From positions 52,390,001-52,454,000 of the forward strand of contig OZ024742.1 of the NCBI GenBank assembly GCA_964016885.1: a stretch of DNA of 64,000 nt, written 5' to 3'. Numbering within the stretch: position 1 is the stretch's first letter; every line of letters begins with the position of its first letter. The translations under genes were made by a program, and so were the position numbers. Below the pieces are notes generated by a model that saw nothing but the letters and a program-made list of their open reading frames with translations, did not search any database and was not told the DNA's origin. Origin of the DNA: Eledone cirrhosa (taxonomy: Eukaryota). This document shows, piece by piece, positions 5,041 to 60,835 of this stretch.

Positions 5041-5136
5041 TTTTAAATAAACATGTTTTAACGGTCTATTCTCCGATTTTTTACTTTTTACTTTCCCACG
5101 TATATATATATATATATGCACACATATATATATGTA

Positions 5137-6161: not shown

Positions 6162-6204
<43 letters not shown>

Positions 6205-6465: not shown

Positions 6466-6508
6466 ACGCTGTACTAGTTTCAAGCTTATTAGCTATCGTC
6501 AGCAACGT
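6466..6508 (-). ncRNA. Minimal type I hammerhead ribozyme (family A)
   Basis: Minus strand: acgttg-CTGACGA-t agct aata agct t-GAAA-ctag-TA-cagcgt; canonical core and palindromic loop III. Confidence 0.85.
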
Positions 6509-6732
6509 ATACCTTCCTGCCAGATGATTGAACGTCTGAAAGTATATAATTTCCTTATGCATATTGACGGCTGAGCAGCCTAATTTGCATATCGAGTGAC
6601 TTAATCGGCCGGGGTAGAGAAAAAGTTAAACTGAAAAATGAAACGAAATTTCATTTCTCACACTTAGTACGGCAGTTACTTAAATATAAGTATGTATAGG
6701 TACATACATATATGTATACAGACGTACAGTAG

Positions 6733-6773
<41 letters not shown>

Positions 6774-7622
6774 GCACACATATATATATATGTACGTATG
6801 GATTCACCGAACTTTTATTATAATGCCCAGTGTACATATATATATGTGTGCATGTATGTATATATTTATACATACTACTGTATACTACGTATATATACTA
6901 CTGTACGTATATATATATATATATATATACATACTACTGCATGTATGTATGTATATATATATACATACTACTGTACGTCTGTATACATATATGTGTGTAC
7001 GTATACATACTTATATTTAAGTAACAGCCGTACTAAGAGTGAGAAATGAAATTTCGTTTCATTTTTTCCGTTTATCATTTTCGGTACCCTGGCTGATTAA
7101 CTCACTCGATATGCAAATTAGGCTGCTCAGCCGTTAATATGCATAAGGAAAGTATATACTTTCAGACGTTCAACCATCTGGCAGGAAGGTATACGTTGCT
7201 GACGATAGCTAATAAGCGTGACTAGCACAGCGTTCCTTTGTCAGTGTTGAACAAATGAGCAACGATTGTTGCTAGACACTGTACGGCTTAATTCAGGATG
7301 TTTGTTTACAAACACACCGGGCATTATAATAAATGTTCGGTGGATCCATACGTACATATATAAATGTGTGCATGTATGTATATATATATATATACATACT
7401 ACTGTACGTCTGTATACATATATGTATGTACGTATACATACTTATATTTAAGTAACAGCCGTACTAAGAGATAGAAATGAAATTTCGTTTCATTTTTCCG
7501 TTTATCGTTTTCGGTACCCCGTTCGATTAACTCACTCGATATGCAAATTAGGCTGCTCAGCCGTTAATATGCATAAGGAAAGTATATACTTTCAGACGTT
7601 CAACCATCTGGCAGGAAGGTAT

Positions 7623-7665
7623 ACGTTGCTGACGATAGCTCATAAGCTTGAAACTAGTACAGCGT
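7623..7665 (+). ncRNA. Minimal type I hammerhead ribozyme (family A)
   Basis: acgttg-CTGACGA-t agct cata agct t-GAAA-ctag-TA-cagcgt; the copy at 7193-7233 has lost GAAA. Confidence 0.85.
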
Positions 7666-7783
7666 TCCTTTGTCAGTTTGTCAGTGTTGAACAAATGATC
7701 AACGATGGTTGCTAGACACTGTACGACTTAATTCGGGATGTTTGAAAGCACAAGTGAAGCCATTTTTTCTTCCCCCCTGTCTT

Positions 7784-14468: not shown

Positions 14469-14479
14469 AGATTTTTGAT

Positions 14480-15446
14480 CCATTGGTAGAGGTTCATATC
14501 CCGAACGAGGGAAAAAAACGTCCTGTTTTCCGCAGATTCTCTACAGACGCAGAGACAGAAACGACTCGAAGCCGTCGGTTACCGGAGAAGAAACCACTGG
14601 GATTTTCACCAGAGCCTCTTTTGCCGGGTTGTGGCCCTAATACCGCTGGGTCCCAGATCAATCCGCCTTGGGTGGCCCTACGAGGAACAGAAGTTCCCGA
14701 CGGCATAGTTCTGACACTAACCGTTGCCAACACCCTGCCACGTTGAGGAGGGGTTGGAGTCCTTCGTTCACCTGGGCTCGACAGTGGTTCCAACGAGACA
14801 GGGCTCAGCCGAGGTCAAGCGTCGCATAGGTGCTGCCAGATCCGCTTTTGGGCGCCTGCGGCGGTGTCTGTGGGATAGAAGAGAGATCACCTCGGAGACC
14901 AAAGGGCGAATCTACCAGGCCGTCGTTCGCACTATCCTTCTCTATGGCTGTGAAACATGGCCTATGAGGGTAGTCGATCAACGGGGGATGGAGGTCTTCG
15001 ATAATGACTGTCTCCCCCGCAATCTTCGCTGCCGGCGCGTTGATCGGGTACCTACCACCAGTCTTCGCCTTTGCTTGATTCTTCGACCCCTTCCTTCAGT
15101 GCTTCTGCAACGGCGCTTGAGATGGTTTGCTCACGCAGCTCGGCGCCCGGAGGGTGAGCTGATCCGCGATGTCCGCCTCCCACCTCCACTCCCTAACTGG
15201 CGCAAGCGCGTTGGCGGGCAGCTGAAGACCTGGGCAAGGACGATCAAGGAGGACGTCTCCGAACTCTCAGGTCCGCAGTTGGTCGGCATGCGCCGATGGA
15301 ACCGTCACTGGCTCGCTATCTCCAGTGACATAGCCCGGGACCGTCGTGCGTGGGCTGCCATGGTTCGGGATGCCGTCAGGACAAGGGAAGAAGCCGACTC
15401 AACCCGTCCAGGGTGAATATCAACACAAGTACAAGTACAAGTAAGT
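14480..15446 (+). mobile_element. Internally deleted RTE-clade LINE (5' non-coding part fused to RT C-terminus)
   Basis: LESFVHLGS...EVKRRIGAARSAFGRL...TKGRIYQAVVRTILLYGCETW...RRLRWFAHAARRPEG; 3' tail of (CAAGTA)n repeats. Confidence 0.85.
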
Positions 15447-16105
15447 ACGTTAAAACTATCCACGACGCGGAATACTCTAACTGTATTACCTCTAACGATA
15501 ACTTATTATCCCATAATTATATATATATATATACAAAGGTGCTGTCTGATAAATATTATCTAGAAAACGTAAAAGAAAAACAAACAAAAGGACAATTCCC
15601 GCTCTTCAGCTGTCAGATCGTGGTATTGTCTTTATGTTTGTGTTTCTTTTACGTTTATATCTATCTATATATGTGTGTGTGTGTATGTGTGTGTGTGTGT
15701 GTGTGTGTCTGTCTGTGTGTGTGAGTGTGTGTGTGTTTGTATGTGTGTGTGCGTGCGTGTGTGTGCAATGTCAACGGGCAAAAGCACAACAGACTAACAA
15801 TACAATACAAAGGTAATATATATTAGTTCAACGCTTGATACAGTAGGAACTTGTGAAGCAGTTTTAACGTTTCGGACCTTAGTCCTTTATACAGAATAAA
15901 ACGTCGAAGAAGAAATAGAAATTTAGACGAGTGTAAGAAGAGGAAGATACGGATTTTTACAGGCGGAAGTAACGTGTGTGTTTAGTTAGATGTACATATA
16001 TACGTACGTGCATGTATACAGATATAGATATGTATAATTACAGAATATAAAAATATAAAGATATACACACACACGCACATATAAATATATTTTATATATA
16101 AATAA

Positions 16106-16169
<64 letters not shown>

Positions 16170-16172
<3 letters not shown>

Positions 16173-16510
16173 TATGTACACGTACATACATATATGTATA
16201 CAGACGTACAGTTGTATGTATATTTATATATACATGCACACATATGTATATGTACGTATGGATTCACCGAAAATTTATTATAATGCTCGGTGTGTTTGTA
16301 AACAAACATCCCGTATCAAGCCGTAGTGTCTAGCAACCACTGTTGCTCGTTTGTTCAACACTGATAAAGGAACGCTGTTCTAGTTTCAAGCTTATTAGCT
16401 ATCGTCTGCAACGTATACCTTCCTGCCAGATGATTGAACGTCCGAAAGTATATACTTTCCTTATGCATATTAAAGGCTGAGTAGCCCAATTTGCATATCG
16501 AGTGGGTTTA
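16170..16510 (-). repeat. Family A copy with mutated hammerhead (16372-16414)
   Basis: Near-identical to 6260-6600; core reads CAGACGA and GAAACTAGAA on the minus strand. Confidence 0.85.
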
Positions 16511-16539
16511 TGTATATATATATATTATATATCATTATT

Positions 16540-16933: not shown

Positions 16934-17316
16934 TAAGGCAGAATTCTAGGAGAAGGAAAACTCTGATATAACACCTGCAACCCTGATGGTATCCAATGAT
17001 GTTGACTTGTTCTTCTTTTTGGTAAATATCATCTTGGTTAAGAGAGTGGGACTGGCTTTGTGCAATGCCTTTGCTCACTATAAAAGATTCACGGCACCGG
17101 CATTGCTTTATATCTGGAGATCTCTGATCTTGTCGTCACATGGTACCATGACCCCAGCACTATGTGTCAATAATTGTCACAAGTGTAGTGTTTGTACCAG
17201 AGTTTTCAAGTCGCTGGCTGGACTAAACAATCACACTCGTTCAGCGCATCGGTAGGGGTTCTCCTACATGGATATAAAGTAGTGGCCGTACTCGAAAACG
17301 AGTTGGCAGCCACCAT
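16934..17316 (+). mobile_element. Non-autonomous RTE derivative (5'UTR motif plus 3' C2H2 end)
   Basis: ctaggagaaggaaaactctga; ends with CSVCTRVFKSLAGLNNHTRSAHR* and an (ATGT)n tail; second copy at 56053-56436 (-). Confidence 0.7.
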
Positions 17317-28011: not shown

Positions 28012-29862
28012 AAATATATAGATAAATACGTTTGTATGGAATCGGGTCCATAAATGATATGGGTGACCTTGAGCCTATTCTGTGCGTAAAAGTTCGATAC
28101 ACAATAACAAAAAAAATACATGTACACACTGTCTGTGCATCGAGTGCTCAGTTTCATACCACCATTGGATCACATACACTATATATAACTCCCTATTTTC
28201 ATATATATATATATATATTCCAACTCGTGTGCTCCTTCTCCACATTTTATTATTATTATTTACTCTCCCACACGAGATACAGAAAATGCCTCCTAAAACA
28301 AAAACTGACTCTACTCTCATTAGCATCAATCAACAGATACTCTAAGAACTACAAAAAATAAACTCTAATTTGTCAATACTCACCAACAAACTTAATTCTA
28401 CAAGTGAAGAAACAATCCCCAAATACACATGCTATGAAATCAACGACAATATCAACAACTTATGTGAAACAATAAAAACACACCTGAATAATAACACAAA
28501 TCCTATTCAAGCGAACGAAAAAACACATGACACTAATGCACTCACAACTTACCAAATAAAAAACAAATTAATACCACAATGGTACACATCTCTTAAAAAC
28601 AGGAAATTCGCCTTTTGGAAGATGATACAAAATAATAACAAGATCTATGAAAAATGGATTAACTCATCCACATTAATCATTCCCCGCAAACTACAAATTA
28701 AATCCATCCCAAACGAACCCGAGACACAAAGACGCCTCAGGGAAAGAATGGCACTTGATAACATAAAAACCGAAATTGAACTCCTTAAATTGAGAGCCCA
28801 AGCAAATGAAGATAGGATCAAATCAATCGATGATGAGATTTATCAAGCAATGATCAATAAAACCAAAGACACCACCCTAGAAAATATTTCAAAACTATGG
28901 TTAGAGGACTGTAATAAGGAAGAATTAAAATCCCTTCAACGTTTGGAAATAAACGAAACCTGGTTCTCTAACTATGAAACACTTTTCCAAAAAGAACATA
29001 AATCCAAGAACCCCTTCATTAAAACCATAATAACAAGAAAATCCAATCACCACCCAAACACCACACAACAACCAACAACAACAAAAAAACAATACCTCCC
29101 CACATACCAAAAATAGAAGGCATCACCTCGCCCCTACCTCCTACACCCACGACATAGCTACCAGACGGATTCCCAAGCAACAAATATAGTAATAGAGAAA
29201 CATCACCTACAAGATAGACACTACAACTTCTCTCCCATCAGGAGAAACCATAGACCCCCCCCCCCCCCACACTTACAACCCCTCTAAGATCCCCACACAA
29301 CAAACCCACAACCATCATTACTTTCAACATAGAACCCAAAATACACAACTACCACACATGCCACATAGGGTCTCACAACCACACACCAACTATAAGGAAA
29401 CCCTAATCTACCCTCCACCACTAACCACATCCTACTACAACACCAGCAGCGGGCAATACAACCACACCATACAACAACAACAGCAGGACTCAATATAACC
29501 ACACAAGACAACCCTACTACAACTACCACCAACACTAGACACCCTACAACAACAGCAGGGTTCAACACAACCACACGATACAACCTAACTTCAACAACCA
29601 CCACAGCTACACACCCTCTAACAACAGCAGGGGCCAATACAACCATAAGAGACATCCAAACTTCAACAACCACCACAACTTCCGTAGTAATTTTTTAGAC
29701 ACAGCACACAGACACAGGGTAACAAGATAACACAAAACACAGGAGACAGAAAATGTAATAAAAATCGTTAATTTAACCTCTAAAGAATTAACAGACCAAA
29801 TCAACATACTCTCCAAAGGTCTGAAATTTACACCAACTCTCCAACGACCTAACTACCCCGAA

Positions 29863-30978
29863 ATGAAGGAAGATATTGCAGAATGCTGTAGAAAACTAAG
29901 ACCCAGCGAGCAACTATACGACAAATACAATGAGGATGACTCAATACCCAGGAATAGAAGCAACTACACCCCACCAAAAGGCAAGAACAAATTCCTCGAT
30001 CAATTCTGCGAACACATTACTAATTACCCATACCACCACCTACACAGACATAAACAAAAACAAAACCTAAGCGAAAAAGAATGGACTGGTCTTAACAGTC
30101 TAAAGAACGACAAAACCCTACCGATCAAAGACGCGGATAAAGGGAGTGCAGTAATCCTTATGAGGACAGATTACTACACGACTCTAGTACTCTCAACTCT
30201 AGAAAACCAAACATATTACGAAAAGGCCGCCAAACACTACACACAACAGAAAATAATGAGAAACCTAAAATCCCTACAACCCTTTACAAAGAAGGCCTTA
30301 CAGACATGGAATACAACTACCAATTTCAAAAGCAGAACCAGACTCTTCTACGGTAACCCAAAGACACACAAAAGCGAAGTAATAGGCAGGGCCTGCAAGC
30401 AAGCCACAGACATTTACATCAATATACCCCCTCCCGATGATCTTAAATTAAGACCCATAATAGCAGGTACCACATGTGAAACCCACCGCCTAAGCAACTT
30501 CCTAGATATTCTGCTTAAACCTTTACTAAAACACATAAAAAGCTTCATAAGGGACGACTTTGACATGCTCAATCACATCCAAACAACACTTAATAACGAA
30601 CATACCCTACTAGTAATCGTTGATGTCATCAATTTATATTCCAATATCCCACACAACCTAGGTATAGAGGCAATACAATTTTGGTTTGAAAATTTCCCTA
30701 GTGAATTTCTACAGCACATCCCTAAAGAATTTGTGTTGGAGGGACTCATCTTGGAAAAGAACTTCTTCGAATTCGATGCCAAATGCTACAGACAGAAACC
30801 TGGGACTGCCATGGGCACGAAAGTAGCCCCCTCATACGCCAACTTTGTCAATGGATATTTGGAAACCACACTCTACAGCAAAGTTCTAGACAAATACGGT
30901 AACCACTTCTACCTACACATAGAAAAAACTGGAAGAGATATCTGGAGCACTGCTTCATCCTCTGGCATGAAAGTATAG
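29863..30978 (+). pseudogene. PLE reverse transcriptase fragment
   Basis: DKG, PKTHK, RPIIAG, DVINLYSNIP and GTAMGT motifs; frameshift before the catalytic DD region. Confidence 0.9.
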
Positions 30979-31199
30979 ATAGACTGATTGAGTTTAAAAC
31001 CCTTCTAAATGGACTCAACTCAAACTTACAATTCACAATGGATTACAGCCAAGAACAACACCTTTTCCTCGACATCCTCATCAAGAAAACAAACAACAAA
31101 ATAGAAACAGACATATACTACAAACCCACAGACTCCAAACAATATCTTTCATTCAACTCGTGCCACTCTCGCCATACCAAAATGGCAATACCTTTTAAC

Positions 31200-31704
31200 A
31201 GTATTTCGAGAGTTAGTCACCAATTTGATAGATAGAGTGTTGTCACCAATTTAGTGGAGGAGTATTTAGAGAGTTGTAATGTTGCCACGAGTAACCACCA
31301 GTTTAGTAGAAAGATATGATAGGAATATCGACAACGACTTTAGCTTGTTTTTACATACTTTATTAACCAAGGTTAAGAAGTGAATTAGGCTGGCATGCCA
31401 AGAGAAATGAAACAAATCAATTAAGATTACAAGAGAAAATACGGGCGACTGGCTGAAAGCGTTTGGCCAGGCTCGTAGGTAATGTTTTGTCGTTACATAT
31501 TGTTTGTGCTTGCGGAGCAAAAGAACAAGCGTGTTTTACCTCAGCATGGTCCAGCTGCGAGTGATAGCGTCCTCAAATCTTTGCGGGTTATTTCTCCCTC
31601 AGAACGCGTAGGGATACATCCTCTTCTACTGGCGCTGATTGGCTGAGCTGAGCCAAATAACGCACAGAGAATGTATGTGAGCCCGCGGAATGTAGGTCAC
31701 TACA
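31200..31704. mobile_element. ~505-bp insertion interrupting the PLE ORF; contains a possible solo LTR (31275-31704, TGTA..TACA)
   Basis: Splits IPFN|LARRIC; flanking duplication accttttaac (31190-31199) / accttataac (31705-31714). Confidence 0.65.
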
Positions 31705-31883
31705 ACCTTATAACCTAGCCAGAAGGATCTGCACAATAGTTTCAGATAAATACACATGCTACACACTAGAAGAATTAAAGAACACACTTATCAGCAGAAA
31801 CTACCCACCATCCCTAATCAACAATGGATTCCAACGTGCCCTAAAACTCAACATCCAGGAACTCAGACACCCCAAACACAGGA

Positions 31884-32522
31884 ATGAACCGCAATAGAAA
31901 ACTCTACCATACATCTCCATACACAACCTCCTCAACAATGAGGCATTCGACACCATCCTCCAGAACATTACTAAAAAGAGACCCAAGAATGAACAAAATC
32001 CTCCAAACACACATCATAAAGAGCAAAAGGCAACCTAAATCCATAAAAAACATCCTCACACAAGCCAAAATCCAACCAACACTCACAATGACCCCTACAA
32101 TAAAAAAAAAATGCGGAAGGCCTAACTGTGGCATATGCATAAATCTAATAGAAGGTTCAACATTCCATTTTAAACAAGGACAACATTTCACAGTTAAACA
32201 CAACTTTACATGTGCATCTGAAAACCTAATCTATGTTTTGACATGCTCAGTTTGTCAAGAGCACTACATAGGACAGACAAAAAACAGCCCCCGACAACGT
32301 ATGACCGTCCATAGATCACAAATCAAAATACAAGAATACAGAAAGATTGCTTTTAGTGAACATATCGCCAATTGTATACCTAACCAACATCCAAACTTTA
32401 AAATTTTCCCCGTTTACAAATTCATAGACAACGCTTTTTTCATCCATCGTACCAATAAGGAAACGTACTTCATTAACAAATTCCAACCTCTAATTAATGG
32501 ACTAAACTTCGGACTAAACTAA
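31884..32522 (+). pseudogene. PLE zinc linker plus GIY-YIG endonuclease
   Basis: KRQPKSIKNILTQAK...CGRPNCGIC...FTCASENLIYVLTCSVCQEHYIGQTK...RMTVHRSQI...EHI...KETYFINKFQPLIN. Confidence 0.9.
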
Positions 32523-33236
32523 AACTGGAACGAACAATGAACCAAAACCAAATCCCTATGTTCTCTAAAGAGTTACCTCCCTCACACCCTACCTCATCCT
32601 TTTTCTTATATAAATGAATTACCCCCCCCCCCTCATTTCTCTCTCCCCCACCTGACCACCCTGAATTACCTCTCCCTGCATATTAACTCTCTAAAAAGGG
32701 AAATCATATCAAACCCCAGTCCACCATTTGCCTCCATCATGGATCAACTAAGCACTCTTGCCATAATAACACATTTTGAACTGCTTATCTTCAAGAACTA
32801 AGCCTCTAAATAATATTAGTTTTACTTTCCCATTACCTTATAATGTTCCACATTACCTCTTTTTTTACTTTACACTTCAAAAACCTTGTTTGTAAATAAT
32901 ATTATTCTTTCTTCACCATTTCCTTAACATGTTCAGCATCACCAACATTTTACACCAATACAAATTCCCCCTTTGATAATGCATAAAATGCTGAAACCGG
33001 TAATAGACAATTATTAAATATATAAATATATAAATAAATGCCATTCTTAATTAATAAATAAATGCCATTCTTAATTAATAAATAAATTAACTAATACCTT
33101 AACACTTCACACAAAGTAAAATATTTTGTTTTAAACATTTTCTAACCCAGAAAAAAGAGAAAAAAATAAAAAGAAAAACATATATTTTTCTCCCTAATAA
33201 TCGTCTTTTTCAGTCTATTTTAATATATATATTATA

Positions 33237-33600: not shown

Positions 33601-36600
33601 AATTTCTATTTATTGCCACGAGGGCTGAAAAGAAGGGGACGATAGAACAGGGGTAGTTTACACAAAAGAACGAATAAAAAACAAACAACAAATATAAAAT
33701 TAACAATAAAGTCCTCAAAAGGGAGGAGGTATTTGGGGGTGTCGCCCCCCCCCCCCCTCCAAGAAAAAGTGTGCAACCCTTCTCCTCAGCAGCACACAGA
33801 GAGAGGGTGCTCCCTTGTTCTTCCATCTTTTTCACCTACAGGCTGATATGGAGAGAAGGCCCATTCACACGGGCCATTCTCGCCACTTTCATCCACCTTT
33901 CATAAAACTGGCTGCGGTGGAGCACCTCTCTCTCCAGTCTGATCCTGCTTCCAAATTGATATCGGAAGAAAAGGACCAGTTGTTGGCCGGAGAGAAAGGT
34001 GCCCGACCTCAACCCTTTCAAACGCGTCCACCATACAACCTCTTTCGCCATGGCTATTACGCACAGAAACATCATTTTTGAAGGGAGGTGGCGGCTTGAT
34101 CGTTATAATGGACTCGGTGGTCAACCGGATAGGTTCCACCCGTGACAGCAGTCGTTCCACGTAGCCCCACAGATCGGCGACGCCCGGGCAGTGTACCAAT
34201 GCATGCGCGACGGTTTCCTCGTCGCGCACGCATCTGGGACAGATCTTTTTCGAGGAGTCCCTACCCGGGCGCCCATGTCTGTAGAGCTTTTCTAGAACGG
34301 GAAGCGCCCGTCGGTAGCACTGCCAGGCCAGGGACCTCTGGAAGTTTCCCATAGGTCCCGGGTTATATGTCCTACCGAACAGGCTGGACAGTTCGTCTTC
34401 CTCCATGGCTAGGGCTTCTCCGAGGGCGTCGTCGCACCTGCTGCGCACCAGCCTTCTATAGAATGTCGAGGTGGAGTTTCCACTGATAGCCGGGTCCGCC
34501 TGCCAGAGAGCCGTGAACGCCTGGGCACACTCGGTGTGCCAGGCGCCCAGTTTTCTCGGTCTTTGCTTGACCCATGATTGCAGCTCGGTGAGGGAGACGA
34601 GTCTCGGAAAGGTTCGTCTCACAAACAGAGCCCACACCGGTTGACCGGTGAGGATTACCTGGAGGTGCTGTAGCCTTAATGTGTGTTTACGCATCAGTAG
34701 CCACGGCATCGCCAGCCCTCCTTTCGAAGGGTGTTGACAGCAGATGGATTTCCTCACCAAAGGAGCCCACTTCTTCCAAAGGAATTGGAGGAGTGCGCGC
34801 TCCATTTTGGTGAGCATTTCCCTTGGGCAAGGCACGACGGACGCTATATAAGTGTTCGCCACCTCCACCCGACCTTTCAGGGATAGTTTGCACTCGGCCC
34901 ACTTCTGGGTCAGTGCAAACACACTGTTCGTTACCTCACACCAGTTCCGAACCAGACCCCGAGCAACTTCACCGGGCCCTCCGTCCAGCGTCCGACGACG
35001 CCATCGGAGGGCATCGGTTTGCCCCTCCACGTGCCGAGTTGCAAACCGATCGACTTGTCCCGGTTCAGCTTAGGCACTGTAAACCTTTCGTACTTTTCCA
35101 GTAAGGTGCCGATCGCCCCGATTTCCGAGTTGGTCGACACCATTACTGTTACCTCAGTGGCGTAGGCCGACACCATTTTCCGCAATCCTGGTTCCAAAGG
35201 GATGCCCTGCAACAACTCCAACTTCCGCAGCAGTGGATGGAGGGCCAATACTTACAGAAGGGAGGAGAGGGCACCCCTGTCGGATGGACCGCGTGATTTC
35301 GAACGGCTCCGAGAGGTAGCCGTTCACCTTGACTCTAGAGCAGATGCCGCTGCTGTGCATGGTAGTGATCCAGCCCCTGAAAACGGGTCCGAAACCTGCC
35401 GCTGCTAACACCGCATCCAGGTAACCATGGTCGACCCTATTGAACGCCTTAGATTGATCCAAGTTGATCAGGGCCCCACCAAAGCCGGGTTCGTTCCCAA
35501 CCCTCTCTATGATGTATCGCATAAGGTGGAGGTTGTCGTGGATGGAGCTGGACGGGATAGCACATGTCTACGCATCTCCCACCAGGTTGCCCACGACAAG
35601 CGCCAACCTCTTTGCTAACACCTCGGCCAAAATCTTTAACTCTGTATTTAGCAGTTATGGGCCTGAAATTACTTATTTTGTCCCCCTTGTTCTCATTCTT
35701 CTTCACTAGCGAGACTACGCCTTTGGTCACAGAACAGGGAATTCTCCCGTTATGTTGCCAGTTGCAGTAGACCGCCTCGAGGAGATCAGGGAACAAGTCC
35801 GGCATAGCTAGATATAGTTCATATGGAAGACCATCGAGACCCGGAGATTTGCGTTTTCCGCATGGCTCAGCAGCTGAAATCGGCCCCTCGGACTTCGCCT
35901 CCTTGTCCGAAAGACGCAGCAGGCCGCCGAGGTATGGACCGAAGTCCACATCCCCATCAGGCCTACCACCCCTCCCGAACAATCGGGCAAAGTGCCTTTG
36001 AAAGGCCTCACACATCTGCTTAGGTTCAAGGATCACCCGTCCTTCCTGGTCTCGCAAAGATCGGATAGTGGATCTAATCCCTCTCTTGGCTTCTGTCACA
36101 CGGGTCCAGCTAACAGCTTTGGTCCCCTCGTTTATTAGAGCACGTATTTTGCTTCGGACAACGCAGCCTTCGTGCTTCGCGTCAAAGAACTGGCCCAAGA
36201 CCGTTCTCGACGCTAGCATTCTGGCCACGTCGCCGCTTCTAATTGCCTCTTCTAGACTATCTACCAACTCCCTTTCCTTCCTATTTCTATCTGACGCTAC
36301 CTCCTTCCTAAATCCTATTGAAACTACTCTAATCGCTCTTTTGAGAGATTCCCACCACCTGCTGTTGACCGTCTCTCCCGTCAACCGATCCTTAAATAAA
36401 GTACTAATCCGGTCTCTGTACACTTTACTTGCGGTAAGAACAAGTTCAGTTTCCAGTAACCGATCCCTGTCTATGGGTTCTATCAAGGTTGAGTATGCAG
36501 ATCACTAATTTGTGATCCGAATAGCCAACCATGAGCATCTCTGGACAGCTTAAAAGGTCCCTATCCTTATTTCTAACTAGGACCCTATCTAGGTACGACC

Positions 36601-39161
36601 TAGATGGTCCGCTCCAGTTTGCCCAAATCCAGGTTGGCGCAGTCGGAAAATCTAGTCGATATCTATCGGCCAGGTCAAATCGGCCGATTAACTCATTGAG
36701 GCTGTTACACCCCCCTCTATCGGGACATGCTCCTAGATAGCCCCAACGTGCATCTAGGATACCATTCCAGTCACCCACTAAAAGCAAGGAGCGGGACGTC
36801 CCCAGAAAAGTCTCCAGACGTTGGAAGAAGTCCGGCCGCGCTGACCCAAAAGGGGCGTAGGCGGCGACCAGCCTAAAGACTCCGCCTTCACCACTGCCAA
36901 CGTCTAAAACCACCAGTCGACCCTCCGGGTCCAGGTGTACCGTCTGTGCGGCGAGACCCAGATGTTTTTGCAGCAGAACGACAACCCCACCCCCACCACC
37001 GGGCTGACAGAGAGATGCGTGCATCTCAAAGTCGTCAAAGGTGGTGGCTAGCTGGCGCACGGTGCTGATCCGGGCCTAGCAAATGACTATCATATTTATA
37101 CAGCGTGACCTGAGGTTATTTAGAAGTTTTGCTTGCTTCCAATATGAGCCCAGGCCACGCGTATTTAGACAAGCCAATTTCAATACAATTTTTCAAGAAG
37201 ACTCGATTCAATGGTTTTACACAGGGGGGGTGGGGGTGGGGGGAACGTCCTCAGGAAAATTGTCTTTTAGTTCTATATAAATGTCTATCGGAGTTTTAAT
37301 CATTTTTAAAGAGGGGTTCTTTGTGTCCCTCGTGAAATTTGGCCCTTCGGTGCAAACCGAAGGGGTTTTTTTCAATTTTGTTTACAAGTTTTATATTTTT
37401 TGTGTTGAAGTATGTGTATAGCTGTGTCTGTCTAATTTTTGTTGGTTTTTGTTCTGTATTTTTTGTGATTTGTTTTGGGGAGGGGTTATGTTTCTTTGTG
37501 TGGGTGCGGTGTGTTTTCTTTTTTTCGCTTTATTTTTTGGAAAGGTTCCCCCTCGTCTTCTGACGTTAAGGGATCCTCTTCCATGCTGGAGGGGAGGGGT
37601 ATATTTTGGGGTTTTGTTATGTATGTTGTTGGAGTTGTTTTAGGTAGGGAGGGGTTCGGTGAGACCGTGTTCAGTTTTTTTTTTACTTGTTGCGTTTGTT
37701 GTTTTTGGGGTAGTGGTGGTGGTCATTGTGTTTTTGTTTGTGGAGTTGTTTTGGGTGTGGAGGGGTTGGTGGGTCCATGTTCAGTTTTTTGTTGACTTGT
37801 TGTGTTTGTTGTTGTGGTGGTGGTGGTGCTGTTGTTTTTGTAGGTGTTGGCAGTAAAGGTTTTGTAGTTTGTTGAGGACAGGCAGCCCTCACAGAGGTAG
37901 CAAGCGGGCCGCCTACCCTCAACTGCAATATTCATAAATTGGGAGTCTTCCAGGGACACTCTTTGGGGTATCTTTGCGATACGTTCTGGTTTCATTCGAA
38001 CCAGAACCTGTATGCCTATACCGCCAAAGTGGCCCTGGTGGCTTTGCCTATATCAAGGAGTTCATCTTCGTCGTCCAGTATCCCTCCTAGTATCCACCAC
38101 ATATTTGTATTTGGGTGTATACGGGAGATTGTTATTTTTTTAGTTTTCTTCCCCATATAGGTGGAGAAGAAAGTGTACTGTTTGGACACAATTGGCGACA
38201 CCGATTATTTTTGGGCCACCAATTGGTCCTTCATCAAAATTATCAGACTCCCATATAACTACCCTCCCCAATAAAAACCATGTCCTTCAACGCGTCTTTT
38301 AACACCAGCTCAATTTCTCTATGCGATAATTGAGCTGATTTTTTCGACGTATTTGATATAGTTCTAAAATTATTTGTCCTTAGGACCGTGTCTCTTTTAA
38401 TATCCTTAGGGGAGATTATGGTGAATTCACCGTTTTCACCAAACCTCACCTGTTTTCCCCCCTCTTTTAGCAATTCCGCTGCATTACTGATGTCAACTAG
38501 GGTGAAAGTTTCGGTCTCCTTAACGACCTGGGCAAAGGATATTCGTGTAGTGGGGTCTTTTTTGTGTGTGTTTCGTTGCTGTTGTTCTTGTTTTCTTGGG
38601 TGTTTGCGTTTTGGTTGTCATTGTTTGCGATACAGTTATTTGGGTTTTCACCCATTTTTTCGTGTCTTGAATTCACATTTATGTTGTTTTCTTTGACATT
38701 GTTGCTGCTGTTTCCGCTTTTGTGTGTGTTTGTGTTATTTTCTTTGTTATTTGTGTTGGCGTTGTTGGTGTCAGTGTAATTTATACATTCTTTCAATTTA
38801 CTGTTTCTATTGTTTGGGTTATTACCCAAGTTTTTACAATTGTTCTCCAATTCCACTTTCATACTCGCATGCGAAGGCCAGAGAAGGGAAGCTTCAGTAG
38901 GTTGAGTTACTTGTTCCTCTTTATCACTTTCCCTGGGGGGCGTGGCATTGGTGTTTTCATGTATGGTGTCCATTATAGTAAGGTGTTATACAATTTTTTC
39001 AAAGTAGGTTTCACCCCCCCCCCCCCCCAAAGGGGTAAAAATAAAATAACCACCCGTCTGCAAGTCACACAAATAAAACAAACGAAACATAAACTCACAG
39101 TCGAAAACGTGATGCATATCCAAAGAGGCTGCAGCCGAAGTAACACACGTCTACTAGCAGC
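33601..39161 (-). mobile_element. Full-length, decayed Tx1/L1-clade LINE (ORF1 remnants ~37300-38970; ORF2 APE-RT-ZnF ~33836-37190)
   Basis: LACLNTRGL, GGVVVLL, LVGDWNGILD, SYLDRVLV, YSDHKLV (APE); KSPGLDGLPYELY, NFRPIT, LDQSKAFNRVDH, SIRQGCPL (RT); CPRCVRDEETVAHALVHC; flanked on both sides by (GATA)n. Confidence 0.92.
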
Positions 39162-40885: not shown

Positions 40886-40920
40886 ACCGCATATATGTAT
40901 ATATATATGTATATATATAC

Positions 40921-41053
40921 AAAAGTGACACAGAGGAGACTGAGGTTGGCTGGACATGCTCACCGACATCCAGAGTTGACATTGCACTCAGTGCTCCTTT
41001 GGGAGCCCCTACATGGACACACTAGAAGAGGAAGACCAAGGTTAACATATGTT
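40921..41053 (+). mobile_element. RTE-clade RT C-terminal fragment
   Basis: [44 protein letters not shown]. Confidence 0.75.
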
Positions 41054-41556
41054 GAATTTAGGAACAGTTTAGGTATGATACATTTTATTACTAATTATAT
41101 CTAAATGTTTCTTCTCTCTTCATAATGTATTTTTAACTCTGATACTGGTTCAGTCTGGTTCAAACTGAATTGATCTGTCCCAGTCATTCATTGAGCAACA
41201 TCGGTGAAGTTGGCACCCTTAACTCACAGTTGGGTGCGGATGCATTCATGTATATATGTGTGTGTCCGCATGTATCTGTGTGTTTCTAAATATATTAATA
41301 ACTCCCTCTGGTCGAGCAATCTTTGAAGTGTGGGGACAACTGGAAAGCTTCCATTACTCATACTTCTCGCCTTCTTCACTACCTCTTCTACGGCCTCGAT
41401 ATGAATACCCCCTCCGCCTCCGTGGTATTTTCTTCGTGGTTATAAGAGGCTTAGCTCTGTTTCTCGACCGTTATATCGCGTGACTGTCTCCCCCTCCGCC
41501 TTTTGGGATTCTTTCTCACGTCGTGTAGACGCGTTCTTGAGACTAGTAAAATGAGG

Positions 41557-41648
41557 TATCCTCTTGATAAGTCGGCAGACCTCGCAAGGACTCTATATCT
41601 TTGATATATTGTTTTTGTTTATGCCACGAAACTACGTAGTCGAGGAAT
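41557..41648 (+). ncRNA. Type I hammerhead, U3-A8 variant, long loop II; predicted cleavage after C41641
   Basis: tcctc-TTGATAA-gt(c)ggca...tgccac-GAAA-ctacgtag-TC-gagga; palindromic ACTACGTAGT stem III, GUC triplet. Confidence 0.8.
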
Positions 41649-42147
41649 TTAGGAACAGTTTAGGTATGATACATTTTATTACTAATTATATCTAAATGTT
41701 TCTTCTCTCTTCATAATGTATTTTTAACTCTGATACTGGTTCAGTCTGGTTCAAACTGAATTGATCTGTCCCAGTCATTCATTGAGCAACATCGGTGAAG
41801 TTGGCACCCTTAACTCACAGTTGGGTGCGGATGCATTCATGTATATATGTGTGTATCCGCATGTATCTGTGTGTTTCTAAATATATTAATAACTCCCTCT
41901 GGTCGAGCAATCTTTGAAGTGTGGGGACAACTGGAAAGCTTCCATTACTCATACTTCTCGCCTTCTTCACTACCTCTTCTACGGCCTCGATATGAATACC
42001 CCCTCCGCCTCCGTGGTATTTTCTTCGTGGTTATAAGAGGCTTAGCTCTGTTTCTCGACCGTTATATCGCGTGACTGTCTCCCCCTCCGCCTTTTGGGAT
42101 TCTTTCTCACGTCGTGTAGACGCGTTCTTGAGACTAGTAAAATGAGG

Positions 42148-42239
42148 TATCCTCTTGATAAGTCGGCAGACCTCGCAAGGACTCTATATCTTTGATATAT
42201 TGTTTTTGTTTATGCCACGAAACTACGTAGTCGAGGAAT
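42148..42239 (+). ncRNA. Type I hammerhead, U3-A8 variant; predicted cleavage after C42232
   Basis: Identical to 41557-41648. Confidence 0.8.
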
Positions 42240-42306
42240 TTAGGAACAGTTTAGGTATGATACATTTTATTACTAATTATATCTAAATGTTTCTTCTCTC
42301 TTCATA

Positions 42307-42359
<53 letters not shown>

Positions 42360-42436
42360 ATGTATGTATATATATATATATATATATGTGTATGTATGTA
42401 ATGTATATATATATATATATAATATATATATGTGTG

Positions 42437-44985: not shown

Positions 44986-46047
44986 AATTAATATATCTAC
45001 CGACATATGTATACAGATGCATACCTATGCCAGCAAATATATATGTTTTGTCTTAGTAACTTTGTGGTTCCATGCAGGGGGATGCAGAACAATTATATGA
45101 AAGACGTAAATAAGAAAGTTATGAAAATTGACTTACTTACTAAAATTTCACTCCAACTAATTAGTTTCTGTAAGGGGATAAATATAGTTACGTAATAACC
45201 ATAGAGAAGCCTTACGTCATCAGGAAGTCTATTCTCAGCTAAGCTTCCAGGCAATGCGGGGACACTGGGAACTTATATAAAAATAATTCAGTGGATGGAA
45301 AAAAGCGAGCGGGGCTAGATTCCAAGACATTGAAAAATTCACTGCCTTCTTGGTCAAGTGGCAAATTCAAAAGAATCAATCACGTGACACTGAGGTTAAC
45401 CAGCTTGGAGTGGGGGTGCTATTAAGACAGAGCCTAGCCACTACTATCAGTCATAGTAGTAATTTCAGCAAATTTTGCTCAACAAATAATTTGGAGATAA
45501 TTATAAAAAATTAATATATCTACTGACATATGTATACAGATACATACCTATGCCAGCAAATATATATGTTTTGTCTTAGTAACTTTGTGGTTCCATGCAG
45601 GGGGATGCAGAACAATTATATGAAAGACGTAAATAATAATTCTTTATAATTATCTCCAAATTATTTGTTGAGCAAAATTTGCCGAAATTAGTACTATGAC
45701 TGATAGTAGTGGCTAGGCTCTGTCTTAATAGCACCCCCACTCCAAGCTGGTTAACCTCAGTGTCACGTGATTGATTCTTTTGAATTTGCCACTTGACCAA
45801 GAAAGCAGTGAATTTTTCAATGTCTTGGAATCTAGCCCCGCTCGCTTTTTTCCATCCACTGAATTATTTTTATATAAGTTCCCAGTGTCCCCGCATTGCC
45901 TGGAAGCTTAGCTGAGAATAGACTCCCTGATAACGTAAGGCTTCTCTATGGTTATTACGTAACTATATTTATCCCCTTACAGAAACTAATTAGTTGGAGT
46001 GAAATTTTAGTAAGTAAGTCAATTTTCATAACTTTCTTATTTACGTC

Positions 46048-46052
<5 letters not shown>
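44986..46052. repeat. ~523-bp unit with partial tandem copy (45509-45635), followed by an inverted copy (45638-46052); pLTR-like
   Basis: aattaatatatctac at 44986 and 45509; 45638-46052 is the reverse complement of ~45097-45512; contains a degenerate CTGATGA-cgtaa..ttacg motif. Confidence 0.85.

Positions 46053-46097
<45 letters not shown>

Positions 46098-53868: not shown

Positions 53869-53940
<72 letters not shown>
53213..53940. repeat. (TA)n/(TACA) satellite
   Basis: Direct reading. Confidence 0.95.
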
Positions 53941-53945
<5 letters not shown>

Positions 53946-54630
53946 ACGAAACTACGTAGTCGAGGAATTTAGGAGCAGTTTAGGTATGATACATTTTATT
54001 ACTAATTATATCTAAATGTTTCTTCTCTCTTCATAATGTATTTTTAACTCTGATACTGGTTCAGTCTGGTTCAAACTGAATTGGTCTGTCCCAGTCATTC
54101 ATTGAGCAACATCGGTGAAGTTGGCACCCTTAACTCACAGTTGGGTGCGGATGCATTCATGTATATATGTGTGTGTCCGCATGTATCTGTGTGTTTCTAA
54201 ATATATTAATAACTCCCTCTGGTCGAGCAATCTTTGAAGTGTGGGGACAACTGGAAAGCTTCCATTACTCATACTTCTCGCCTTCTTCACTACCTCTTCT
54301 GCGGCCTCGATATGAATACCCCCTCCGCCTCCGTGGTATTTTCTTCGTGGTTATAGGAGGCTTAGCTCTGTTTCTCGACCGTTATATCGCGTGACTATCT
54401 CCCCCTCCGCCTTTTGGGATTCTTTCTCACGTCGTGTAGACGCGTTCTTGAGACTAGTAAAATGAGGTATCCTCTTGATAAGTTGGCAGACCTCGCAAGG
54501 ACTCTATATCTTTGATATATTGTTTTTGTTTATGCCACGAAACTACGTAGTCGAGGAATTTAGGAGCAGTTTAGGTATGATACATTTTATTACTAATTAT
54601 ATCTAAATGTTTCTTCTCTCTTCATAATGT
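53941..54630 (+). mobile_element. Second locus of the 591-bp retrozyme-like element (1.17 units)
   Basis: GTC sites at 53961 and 54552 (591 apart); same 3' end (ctctcttcataatg|tata) as 42309; embedded in (TA)n. Confidence 0.85.
54468..54559 (+). ncRNA. Type I hammerhead, U3-A8 variant; predicted cleavage after C54552
   Basis: tcctc-TTGATAA-gt(t)ggca...tgccac-GAAA-ctacgtag-TC-gagga; differs from 41557 only at the bulged base. Confidence 0.8.
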
Positions 54631-54686
54631 ATATATATATATATATATATATTGGAAAATGTGTGTAATCCTTGGTACAGTTAGGT

Positions 54687-55469
54687 ATATTAAGACAGGG
54701 GGGAAGAAAAAATGGCTTCACTTGTGCTTTCAACGAATTTATTTTCTTCACAAAATCCAAAAAGAATTTTTTTCGGGATTAGAAAAATTATTTTTTTCTT
54801 AAAAAAAATTATTTTATAAATTAAGTTGTTGGTTGTTGGTTAGGTCTTAGGAGTTCTTGGTTAACGTAGGAGGTATTGTTTCGTTTTTAGAACGACCTTT
54901 CACGCTGAGGTGCGCTTGTCAAACTGATGTGTATGTGGTGTGTTGTTCTATATATAGGGATTTAACATGTCTGTGGTGTGGTGGGGGTTTCTTTTCTCCC
55001 CCTTTAATAAGTGCATGGGTGTAGCTGTGTTGAAAAAGTGTTAATAGCAGTAATGAGTTGAGACGGTGAGTAGGGTTGGGTGGGGAGAAATGTAGCAAGT
55101 GCGGCCTGCCCCGGTCATTCTCGAAAAATTCCTTTATTCAAGGGAAAAAGCTTTTAGTATTTCTTTTGTGTTGAGAATGGTCACAGGCAAATCGCACCTG
55201 TCAAGTTTGTAAATAATTATTTTTTTCTTTTTTTCTGAAGATATTTTCTACGTCCATCCCAAAATTAGTCCTTTGTTCAACACACACATATGTGCGTATA
55301 TACGTACATACACACACGGGCATATGTAGGAATATATAGGCACACACCATCAATCACACACCCATGTACAAATACATCCACATACATACACAAAAACATA
55401 TAGAGACACATATAAAAACACACATACACATACGTACACACACGAATATGTACTCATACCTCCACATGG

Positions 55470-55508
<39 letters not shown>

Positions 55509-55559
55509 CATACATATACATATACACACACATACACACACACATATATATATACACAC

Positions 55560-55594
<35 letters not shown>

Positions 55595-55789
55595 CATACA
55601 TATACATACATACACATACATACATATACACACATAAAGATACATAACTAAATATACATATATACACATACACGCACACATAAACACACACACACACACG
55701 CACGTGTATACACACACAGACACACACACATATACATATGTCCGTATATATACCTCCGTTCACACATACATGCATACACACACACACAT

Positions 55790-57064: not shown

Positions 57065-58057
57065 TACAAACATACACACATCCATACATATATATACATA
57101 CACACACACACATACACACACCCACATACATATAAACCCACACGTACATACATCCATACATACCTACACACATATATGTGTGTGTCTCACCGTTCACTCA
57201 GATATTCATGTGTATACATAAGAAGAGGGGGGGGGTAGTGGAATGGAATTTTACCTCCGAGTGTTAATTCATTTTTTCGTGTTCAGTAGTGGTTTAAATT
57301 TTTCAATGAAGAATTATTCTTTATATCTGCGGAAATGTTCGTTATCCGACCATATCTTGAAGAAAGGGAAGGTTGTGAACTTTCCCTTCCCGCATGATGC
57401 AAAGTGTGCGCTACATGTGGTATTTCTGACTGTGAGGTCTTTAATTTGTTGTTTATGTACCCGCACTCTATCATGTAATCCCGTTCTGGTTTCCCCAATG
57501 TAATACTCTTTACACTGTCGACATGTTGCGCAATATATTAGGTTTTTCGTTTTGCAGATCATGTTAGCATTGACCTTGAAATTATCATGGTTTTTGAAGG
57601 ACAACTGTTTGCCCTCTTCGATGAGTTCACAGGTTCCACATCTAGGGTCCCCGCATTTCGTCACTTGCATTGATTCCATGTTGGTCGTAAATTTTGCCTT
57701 GGTAATTAGTTTTTTAAGGTTGGGTGCTTGGCGTCTGCTATAAATTATCTGTGTGTTTTTTAAGAGTGCATTCATTTTGGTAGATTGCTGTAGAATCGGG
57801 AGATACTGCTTAACAGTTTTCACAATGTTGATGTTCCCTGGGTTGTGAGTAATGACAAAAGAGATAGCAGGGTTTTCTTTTTTATGTTGTGGGTTTGGTT
57901 TTCTCAGTGTTGTTATTGGGATGTTCTTAGACTTGGAGATGGCTGTGTTGATGAGTTTCATCGGGTATTCTTGTTTTTTAAGGAATTTTTTCAGGTCACA
58001 TAATCTTTTTTCTTGTAGTACGGGGTGTGTTGCTATAGTGCATATATACACATACAT

Positions 58058-58120
<63 letters not shown>

Positions 58121-58207
58121 CATATATATACGCATACATACACATACATACACACATACATATATACATATATATATGCGTACACACGAGCACATAAAGA
58201 CACATAT

Positions 58208-58282
<75 letters not shown>

Positions 58283-59058
58283 CATGTGGAGGTATGAGTA
58301 CATATTCGTGTGTGTACGTATGTGTATGTGTGTTTTTATATGTGTCTCTATATGTTTTTGTGTATGTATGTGGATGTATTTGTACATGGGTGTGTGATTG
58401 ATGGTGTGTGCCTATATATTCCTACATATGCCCGTGTGTGTATGTACGTATATACGCACATATGTGTGTGTTGAACAAAGGACTAATTTTGGGATGGACG
58501 TAGAAAATATCTTCAGAAAAAAAGAAAAAAATAATTATTTACAAACTTGACAGGTGCGATTTGCCTGTGACCATTCTCAACACAAAAGGAATACAAAAAG
58601 CTTTTTCCCCTGAATAAAGGAATTTTTCGAGAATGACCGGGGCAGGCCGCACTTGCTACATTTCTCCCCACCCAACCCTACTCACCGTCTCAACTCATTA
58701 CTGCTATTAACACTTTTTCAACACAGCTACACCCATGCACTTATTAAAGGGGGAGAAAAGAAACCCCCACCACACCACAGACATGTTAAATCCCTATATA
58801 TAGAACAACACACCACATACACATCAGTTTGACAAGCGCACCTCAGCGTGAAAGGTTGTTCTAAAAACGAAACAATACCTCCTACGTTAACCAAGAACTC
58901 CTAAGACCTAACCAACAACCAACAACTTAATTTATAAAATAATTTTTTTTAAGAAAAAAATAATTTTTCTAATCCGGAAAAAAATTCTTTTTGGATTTTG
59001 TGAAGAAAATAAATTTGTTGAAAGCACAATTGAAGCCATTTTTTTCTTCCCCCCTGTC

Positions 59059-59065
<7 letters not shown>
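54687..59065 (-). mobile_element. 5'-truncated Neptune-type PLE flanked by ~785-bp inverted pseudo-LTRs (54687-55470 / 58280-59065)
   Basis: GIY-YIG at ~57250-58035 (-): [53 protein letters not shown]; the arms are near-perfect reverse complements. Confidence 0.9.
56053..56436 (-). mobile_element. Non-autonomous RTE derivative nested in the PLE 3' microsatellite
   Basis: Reverse complement of 16934-17316; extra short pieces at 56466-56486 and 56610-56655. Confidence 0.75.
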
Positions 59066-59122
<57 letters not shown>

Positions 59123-59327
59123 TATGTACACGTACATACATATATGTATACAGACGTACAGTAGTATGTATATATATATATACAAACATGCACGCATATG
59201 TATATATGTACGTATGGATTCACCGAACATTTATTATAATGCTCGATGTGTTTGCAAACAAACATCCCGTATTAAGCCGTAGTGTCTAGCAACTATCGTT
59301 GCTCGTTTGCTCAACACTGACAAAGGA

Positions 59328-59370
59328 ACGCTGTACTAGTTTCAAGCTTATTTGCTATCGTCAGCAACGT
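59328..59370 (-). ncRNA. Minimal type I hammerhead (family A)
   Basis: Minus strand: acgttg-CTGACGA-tagcaaataagctt-GAAA-ctag-TA-cagcgt. Confidence 0.75.
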
Positions 59371-59550
59371 ATACCTTCCTGCCAGATTGTTGAACGTATA
59401 TACTAACCTTATGCATATTAACGGCTGAGTAGCCCAATTTGCATATCGAGTGGGTTAATCGGCCGGGTGCACCGAAAACGATAAACGGAAAAAATGAAAC
59501 GAAATTTCATAAGGTAAGTATATACGTTCAACAATCTGGCAGGAAGGTAT

Positions 59551-59593
59551 ATGTTGCTGACGATAGCTAATGAGCTTGAAACTAGTACAGCGT
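59551..59593 (+). ncRNA. Minimal type I hammerhead (family A)
   Basis: atgttg-CTGACGA-t agct aatg agct t-GAAA-ctag-TA-cagcgt. Confidence 0.8.
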
Positions 59594-59856
59594 TCCTTTG
59601 TCAGTGTTGAGCAAACGAGCAACGATGGTTGCTAGACACTACGGCTTAATACGGGATGTTTGTTTACAAACACATCGAGCATTATAATAAATGTTCGGTG
59701 AATCCATACGTACATATCTATATGTGTGCATGTATGTATATATATATATACATACTACTGTACGTCTGTATACATATATGTATGTACGTGTACATACTTA
59801 TATTTAAGTAACAGCCGTACTAAGAGTGGGAAATGAAATTTCGTTTCATTTTTTGC

Positions 59857-59904
<48 letters not shown>

Positions 59905-59906
<2 letters not shown>

Positions 59907-60835
59907 GTTTACATATATATATATGTGTGTGTGGTGTGTGTTTTGCAACGGGTCACTTTGTGGCTCAATGAAGAATTAATAAATTAAATAATCAGAGCTA
60001 TATATCATAAAACATGTCTATAGAATCACCAGATAAAATATATACCGTTTCCTCTCCCAATTAGCATAATTAACCATATAAAAAATTGATTAGACCAAGC
60101 TATAAAATAACCGAAAGCAGCCCTTCCGGCATGGGACGGAGTATTTCGACAGCCTGTGTAAATCGACCAGATTTTTACACCAAACATAATTAGGTGTAAA
60201 ATAAACTAGGAGAAAAGTGAACATATTTAGTTACCTCTACCATGGTTTCCTCCGTATTTTAAGATATTCGATAAGATCGGACATCTCGAGCATCAGACTC
60301 TTCAGGAGTTAGCTCAAATTTAGACAATTAATTTTCCAAAGTGATCGCGCCAAGAATACATTAAACAATGGCTAAGAATCGTGACGTAGCAGCGATCAGG
60401 TTAGAAAGAATGTGATTAGTTGCTTACGGTTGGTGGCTTTTTGCTAGAAAGCGCAGTCCAATACAGCCAAAATTGTATCTCAACCTAACGGGAGATTATT
60501 ACATATAAAGTTTTATACATATATATATATGTGTGTGTTTTGCAACGGGTCACTTTGTGGCTCAATGAAGAATTAATAAATTAAATAATCAGAGCTATAT
60601 ATCATAAAACATATCTATAGAATCACCAGATAAAATATATACCGTTTCCTCTCCCAATTAGCATAATTAACCATATAAAAAATCGATTAGACCGAGCTAA
60701 AAGAATAAAGGCTTCTATGAAGAAATCTCCGATAAATAACCGAAAGCAGCCCTTCGCGGCAGTTGCAACGGAGTATTTATCGAGTATTTCGACAGCGTGT
60801 GTAAATCGACCAGATAGACAGTCAACCAAACAGAT
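59905..60835 (-). repeat. ~600-bp unit in 1.5 tandem copies with a hammerhead (retrozyme/pLTR-like)
   Basis: ttttgcaacgggtcactttgtggctcaatgaag at 59941 and 60538. Confidence 0.8.
60231..60311 (-). ncRNA. Type I hammerhead motif with long loop II
   Basis: Minus strand: taactc-CTGAAGA-gtctg...cggag-GAAA-ccatgg-TA-gaggta; palindromic ACCATGGT. Confidence 0.65.

Follow-up and report, generated by a model that had tools for sequence, protein, structure and literature searches.

A hammerhead repeat of Eledone cirrhosa that is probably copied into TA microsatellites by Penelope-like machinery from a circular template

How does a non-coding retrozyme enter DNA, and why do the inverted copies of Penelope-like elements (PLEs) carry a tail at one end? 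A 591-bp hammerhead repeat from Eledone cirrhosa bears on both questions. Rolling-circle copying by PLEs has been proposed, without demonstration, in the available text of PMC7229834 and of the preprint 10.64898/2026.07.22.740005. The repeat has thousands of young copies, whose footprints can be counted: mixed pairs of ends, a single template, and identical editing-like marks. The family is, with little doubt in our minds, an animal retrozyme that works like a non-autonomous PLE. We also think it likely that the hammerhead repeat RNA is copied into TA microsatellites by a borrowed PLE enzyme, probably from a circular template of unit length.

Two insertions of the unit lie in the window, by which we mean the whole stretch of 64,000 nucleotides that was analysed (Table 1). 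The earlier note had reported an exact 591-bp period with few substitutions across copies at two loci, and this is correct: the units within the array are 1 substitution apart, and the unit at the second locus differs from the window unit at 7/588 positions. The longest stop-to-stop frame inside the unit is 86 aa. The two loci were also said to stop at the same base. They do stop together, at unit position 77-80 after C41641, and then run into (TA)n; what that claim missed is a second fixed end (+243-247), which is absent from the window. The start of the array 3 nt past the cut site is likewise real, and it is uninformative, because 5' ends scatter over the whole unit and the GA at the junction is shared. 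In 3/3 other copies of the flanking repeat, which is RTE-like by its motif, the continuation of the repeat has this 2-nt GA too. The scattered 5' ends and the GA overlap rule out a 5' end defined by the cut site for this array, and its start looks like chance. A single arm, as seen here, would mean that the other arm was too short to see or has been lost.

Table 1. Features of the 591-bp unit and its surroundings in the window.
Feature	Position	Strand	Remarks
Single-armed insertion	41054..42309	+	unit positions 4-591, 1-591, 1-77 = 2.12 units
One complete 591-nt unit	41642..42232	+	runs from one cut site to the next; predicted monomeric or circular RNA
Type I hammerhead	41559..41646	+	predicted cut after C41641
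Stem I, first hammerhead	41559-63 with 41642-46
Hammerhead core	41564-70		U3..A8/A9
Bulged stem II, first hammerhead	41571-77 with 41622-27
Stem III	41631-40		10-nt palindrome
Second hammerhead	42150..42237	+	identical to first
Fixed 3' end A	42306..42312	+	+77 to +80; joined to (TA)n via shared TAT; putative RT start site
Position of fixed 3' end B	41884..41888	+	+243 to +247
(TA)n target microsatellite	42310..42431	.
Fragment of another repeat	40920..41053	+	2-nt overlap with array 5' end
Second insertion	53940..54630	+	1.17 units; TA both sides; end A; full hammerhead 54470-54557

The family is large and dispersed. The 3.0-Gb genome contains 7,696 exact copies of an 18-base half-site of the ribozyme (control, 0). 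For an unbiased sample we took 47 loci in order along C1, of the 48 that lie behind the first 100 half-site matches; the 48th (L020/L021) was already in our sample. The ratio of loci to matches in this set gives an estimate of ~3,700 loci genome-wide. Unit copies that are 98-100% identical occur on several chromosomes, the median identity to the window unit in the C1 set is 97.6%, and the longest arm that we saw has 11 units. Target-site duplications are not readable in (TA)n targets. The description of the family as non-coding, young, TA-targeting and moved in trans holds genome-wide. There are also two older subfamilies of the unit, ~80% and ~70% alike to the window unit, with periods of 587 and 594 nt that were each seen at single loci. 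Together with the young unit, they represent at least three waves of spread. The older copies (L197-L225 and L239-L268) are free of ORFs and have the same two ends as the young unit.

The second fixed end, which the window lacks, is used by about half of the arms elsewhere in the genome. In the unbiased C1 set (n=76), 35 of the 3' ends are at ~+78, 34 are at ~+243, and 7 are elsewhere; 67/76 run into TA. Furthermore, the two kinds of end are combined in a regular way. This set has 26 head-to-head pairs, of which 21 join one +78 arm to one +243 arm and 5 have an odd end, while none joins two arms that are alike. One of the mixed pairs is a segmental duplicate, hence 20 are distinct, and such an outcome has a chance of ~1e-6 if the ends are independent. 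Mixed pairs similarly accounted for 17/18 in the top-scoring set and for 3/5 and 6/7 in the older subfamilies. In a set selected because its 5' ends fall on the cut site they were 12/15, the other 3 pairs (2 distinct loci) having two +78 ends.

The 5' ends of the arms are scattered over the whole unit, with no sharp pile-up at one start site. We considered classic twin priming, in which the first cDNA stops at the second primer, and rejected it, as neither +78 nor +243 has a pile-up of 5' ends. Arm lengths correlate weakly (rho 0.46, p 0.04, n 20). As a separate observation, unit positions 320-415 (window 41961-42056) have about twice as many 5' ends as expected (39/111 against 18%), an excess seen in every pass. 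The region was picked after inspecting the data, and the excess could be due to pausing of the reverse transcriptase (RT) or to transcript starts.

Both arms of an insertion were copied from the same template. Opposite arms of one insertion differ at 72/17,119 sites (0.42%) and units within one arm differ by 0.45%, as compared to 3.75% between loci (median 2.1%). At the 53 head-to-head junctions where the arms meet, 10 have inserted bases, and 19/43 of the remainder overlap by at least 3 nt, versus 6% at random (these overlaps were taken from BLAST ends and may be inflated).

Could that template have been processed by a ribozyme? A descriptor for type I hammerheads matched at 41559-41646, 42150-42237 and 54470-54557, and it gave one weaker unrelated match in the 64-kb window. 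In 20 block-shuffled controls there were 2 loose matches and 0 at the stringency of the three unit hammerheads. The proposal of a type I hammerhead in each unit thus stands as to the three sites; its 5' strand of stem II, read as gtggca, was wrong and is gtcggca (gttggca at the second locus), with one bulged base. Rfam gave 10 matches at E<=10 for 41400-42300, none of which is a hammerhead, and for the whole window microsatellite matches dominate among the best 150 of 292. Folded by itself, the 106-nt motif is no more stable than its shuffles (z -0.52). Because Rfam is blind to the motif, and because the motif alone folds at chance level, the case for a ribozyme is a comparative one.

Between the young and old majority sequences, 0/25 motif positions outside the selecting pattern differ, versus 114/543 positions elsewhere in the unit. 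Across 21 aligned copies, 94.8% of stem cells pair, as against 28-52% in slid controls, and both partners have changed in 5/16 base pairs, of which stem I and the stem III palindrome hold two each and stem II holds one. As the 21 copies fall in three related groups, the compensatory changes amount to a few events; these are present in all three stems and across three subfamilies. The palindrome served to pick the oldest set; we had first met it, unselected, in L108. By these comparisons, the motif appears to be a ribozyme under selection. The stem III palindrome is predicted to form no hairpin alone but to form a duplex between two copies (-12.9 kcal/mol), which would fit with dimeric cutting. 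The circular unit has a predicted fold of -170 kcal/mol, versus -133 +/- 8 for 40 dinucleotide shuffles (z -4.8), and the predicted whole-unit fold hides stem I (pairing probability 0). Copies L188-L194 have deletions inside the ribozyme, and since some of these recur in the second arm or the second unit, templates with a damaged ribozyme may still be copied.

If RNA were cut and then copied as linear monomers, cDNAs should end at the cut site. Genome-wide, the C that precedes the cut site is missing from only 38 matches, and in 30 fetched loci ~19 arms truly begin there. This gives ~24 cDNA starts at the cut site versus 7,696 read-throughs, with ~13 expected from a background stop rate of 0.0017 per base. 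As cDNAs hardly ever end there, cut linear monomers are not the usual template.

The alternative that survives best, although we consider it unlikely, is that the template is an uncleaved linear multimer: a PLE would make the same two-site, two-arm insertion, the hammerhead would be idle at this step, and the arrays would have grown earlier by DNA-level change or template jumps. Uncleaved RNA is indeed the dominant in vitro substrate of the anole PLE, according to the available text of PMC11167929, and the hidden stem I would suit a multimer, as would the enrichment of 5' ends at unit 320-415 if these are transcript starts. A multimer would not, however, be expected from the lack of a sharp 5'-end pile-up at a single start site, or from a ribozyme that is retained, with compensatory changes, over ~30% divergence.

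Editing-like changes provide another way to distinguish a circle from a multimer. Of 111 loci considered, 94 were used for this test (loci without an arm at >=96.5% identity were dropped), and three short variable stretches of the unit were excluded. Private changes that are common to every unit include 12/31 that are A>G (on the RNA strand) and 3 that are T>C, while changes in one unit only include 3/102 that are A>G and 18 that are T>C (Fisher p 1e-6 for the A>G contrast). The contrast is also found in the unbiased set (11/21 for all-unit versus 2/30 for one-unit changes) and without the two richest loci (5/22 versus 2/98). At L184, 7 A>G changes are present in all 7-8 copies and in both arms. 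This pattern is as expected if one A-to-I-edited unit was read as G on each pass around a circle. A multimer that was edited unit by unit would not give it, as per-unit editing predicts A>G changes that are specific to units. The 5' neighbours of the A>G sites show no significant bias (1/18 with G, p 0.07). The lean of one-unit changes to T>C (18 vs 3, p 0.017) is, we infer, due to copying errors with G opposite U.

A monomer circle does not explain two other patterns. At L096, a T>C change is found only in the first full unit of both arms, and a register-matched change of this kind would suit a linear multimer; at L093, one change is found in 3/13 copies. Also, the shared A>G marks could have been inherited from a parent array outside our sample, which covers 94 of an estimated 3,700 loci. 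Taking these sequence patterns together, a circular template is the most likely route for the 591-nt retrozyme, and probably the actual one.

Which enzyme might do the copying? Retrozyme copies have 5' truncation, an inverted 5' arm, a tail at one end, and a microsatellite target. The same genome contains a young autonomous PLE with a 927-aa ORF and with a hammerhead in both terminal repeats, which has a U3:A8 core. The ORF has the motifs RWK, DKT, CxCx5C, CxxC and CxH, which define the Hydra clade in the available text of PMC8557442. Pfam did not recognise the endonuclease fragment of this element, so the clade assignment rests on motifs that were read by eye; homologues of the protein had no informative names. 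The 3' ends of this Hydra-clade PLE are at +60 and +220, and its two-armed copies have one end of each kind in 9/9 cases (41 loci). The identical pairing rule in an autonomous element ties the footprint of the retrozyme to PLE machinery.

We did not find a clear partner PLE in the two families that we sampled (30 loci each), a minority of the PLE families of the genome. The tail of the Hydra element aligns marginally to the unit (score 90.5 versus a shuffle maximum of 85.0), and a profile search of all sampled loci did not match that tail. We also sought a partner with the same stem III and a shorter stem II; of the 8 pattern matches, 7 are deletions of the 591-bp unit. No ORF was found when the older subfamilies and a related repeat were searched for one.

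The window has a 5'-truncated copy of the Hydra-clade PLE (3734-5100, +), which ends at +60 and has a U3:A8 hammerhead near 5003-5033; a first look at this very abundant family gave 61,416 candidates with ORFs of up to 927 aa, and the best 150 of these have 94-98% identity once the copy in the window is set aside. A decayed Neptune-like PLE (28346-33220, +; 17,897 candidates) retains RT and GIY-YIG pieces, and its 3' region, which runs out into (TA)n, has another U3:A8 hammerhead-like motif near 32973-33002. Because the U3:A8 core is also found in this family, the core does not name the Hydra element as the partner. Other Hydra-like families (L158:2226-2260, L072, L100 and L138) have canonical C3:G8 hammerheads and a different palindromic stem III.

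Given these similarities, the unit might be an ordinary pLTR of an autonomous PLE and the arrays might be 5'-truncated debris, which we regard as very improbable. The end geometry and the U3:A8 core do match the terminal repeats of PLEs in the same genome, and Xenopus retrozymes are homologous to pLTRs in the available text of preprint 10.64898/2026.07.22.740005. But 30/76 arms of the unbiased C1 set are longer than one unit, and all sampled arms that were long enough ran into the previous unit and 0 into an ORF, nor was there an ORF upstream of the older-subfamily units in 30 and 30 fetched stretches. The earlier note had named genomic copies that mostly sit 3' of a PLE ORF as the sign of an ordinary pLTR; among the sampled copies, none was placed 3' of an ORF with RT and GIY-YIG. 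Least probable of all, to the point of being hardly credible, is that these are DNA-level satellites that spread by unequal crossover or extrachromosomal DNA circles without an RNA step: some mosaic patterns fit later local duplication (L030), and the available text of preprint 10.64898/2026.07.22.740005 proposes local amplification of solo pLTRs, but fixed 3' ends with random 5' ends and head-to-head arms are signatures of an RNA step, as is the strand bias of the changes, towards A>G where all units share them and towards T>C where one unit has them; DNA recombination gives none of these, and the strand bias already refutes the reading for the most part.

We therefore return to copying from a circle by a PLE enzyme, which might proceed as follows. 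The units would be transcribed, as the strand-biased A>G scars suggest. By analogy with known retrozymes, two hammerheads would then likely pair via the palindromic stem III and cut weakly, and a host ligase would close the monomer. A dimer of the PLE protein may nick both strands of the (TA)n target, whose 3' ends would prime at the internal sites +78 and +243. That insertions have these two ends, and combine one of each, is observed; the dimer is our explanation for it. Both RTs would copy one template for up to 11 units and would pass the cut site almost always; the identity of the arms and the read-through of the cut site are observed, and a circle would account for them. Lastly, the two cDNA ends may join by short microhomology, giving head-to-head arms with the overlaps that we see at the junctions. 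On balance we favor, with somewhat less assurance than its circular template taken singly, the full account in which these loci are a genomic record of rolling-circle retrotransposition, with a PLE dimer, one edited RNA circle, two start sites, and joined cDNAs. If so, a two-site PLE dimer on one circle would explain the inverted repeats and tails of PLEs generally. The footprints point to the RNA sites, the target, and the enzyme clade for direct testing in vitro.

Much of this has precedents: the class of element, the link to PLEs, the tail, the two start sites and the U3-A8 core are already in print, as far as the available text of the papers cited here goes. Animal non-LTR retrozymes, for which rolling-circle cDNA is the proposed model, are described in the portions available of PMC7229834 and 10.64898/2026.07.22.740005. 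Like the family studied here, they are dispersed as short arrays of a tandem unit that encodes no protein, has one type I hammerhead and is below 50% GC; they also have a strongly self-paired predicted circle and co-occur with PLEs. The 591-nt unit exceeds the 170-400 nt of PMC7229834 but is within the 51-972 bp of the preprint. Coral and axolotl retrozymes differ from it, as the U3:A8 core and the hidden ribozyme fold belong to the 591-nt family. Expression and circles were shown for the published animal retrozymes, and the 591-nt family is described here from genomic DNA. The pair of fixed ends, the strict pairing of arms and the editing scars of this family have no counterpart in those portions of the papers. 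The plant LTR retrozyme, with a type III hammerhead in its LTRs and a 4-bp target duplication, is not matched by the type I order and tandem layout here.

The PLEs with an endonuclease (EN+) of the Hydra and Neptune clades share features with the family, to judge from the available parts of PMC8557442 and PMC3846280: a (TA)n target, 5' truncation, partial tandems, an inverted 5' copy, a one-ended tail, and a hammerhead in the repeat. Unlike them, the 591-nt family has no ORF, and its tail is 165 nt rather than 30-40. Also, the tail is optional in EN+ PLEs, while here ends with and without the tail pair one to one. The anole Poseidon PLE, in the in vitro work as available in PMC11167929, likewise starts reverse transcription at two internal sites that lie downstream of the hammerhead; both strands of its target are nicked and extended, and a dimer is predicted. 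No strand difference in its start sites was observed, however, and it primes without homology. In the 591-nt family, each arm of an insertion has a site of its own, and both ends are at short TAT/TA motifs of the unit. The minimal hammerheads of PLEs, including the U3-A8 variant of the Schistosoma Cercyon elements (PMC4209133, as far as available), similarly have a U3-A8 core, a bulged helix II, and a palindromic helix III that suits dimers, but the palindrome of the 591-nt family is longer, at 10 nt, and its loop II is structured and 44 nt long. PLE-type hammerheads cleave poorly in vitro according to the same text, and 1/9 Xenopus hammerhead dimers cut according to that of preprint 10.64898/2026.07.22.740005. 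In the open-access literature available to us, we found no description of the 591-nt family, and neither strict arm pairing nor editing scars as evidence for a circular template; supplements of PMC7229834 and PMC8557442 list further hammerhead families, which may include it.

The unit is also found in 20 sequencing runs from 16 studies and 17 organisms, and 12 of the runs have half or more of its words. No RNA run is listed among them, which has no bearing on expression. We examined four of 24 in detail and left out runs with shares <=0.23; contig depth in these runs does not give a copy number. Runs X1, X3 and X4, from three organisms, have one unit contig each, with 3-5 differences from the window copy, and longer pieces of the older relatives are absent among the pieces shown. 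Run X9 has a mixed population of units, like the Eledone cirrhosa genome. The alleles of X1 and X3 at the compared sites are the common alleles of that genome, and the combination of alleles in X4 was found in 0/63 pieces; trace DNA, close relatives and transfer are not told apart by these alleles. The closed unit contigs of X1, X3 and X4 do not speak for an RNA circle, because tandem DNA yields the same joint. JGI metagenome contigs and IMG/VR had no exact match to the 3' half of the ribozyme. In general, the unit may be in these runs as trace DNA, because of close relatives or RNA runs, or by horizontal transfer. Because near-identical units occur in other organisms' runs without the older relatives, recent movement of the young unit across species can be entertained, but we think it doubtful; that such a crossing and the rolling-circle record are both real is more doubtful still. 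If the unit does reside in other organisms, this would mean that a ribozyme element without coding capacity passes from species to species.

Other repeats of interest were noticed. Another hammerhead repeat (L038:3080-3420, -, and L269-L298) has a U3:A8 core, a long loop II, periods of ~140 and 323 bp, and 1,700 first-look candidates that are ~85-89% alike. Directly after the second locus in the window is a 1-kb inverted pair (54630-55664 and 58073-59118, 91%) that surrounds a GIY-YIG-like fragment (57317-57900, -); this pair probably marks a further PLE insertion with two arms. Between TA runs there are more non-coding repeats, either palindromic or inverted, at 6199-7744, 16065-16511, 45094-46056 and 59062-59939. 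Among 111 window frames scanned, there were no host genes, except for one C2H2 zinc-finger match, which is weak and below the curated cut-off (frame at 16950-17252, +). Two decayed LINEs (12996-14578 and 33900-37075, -), which are 77% alike, have matches to zf-RVT, RVT_1 and endonuclease domains.
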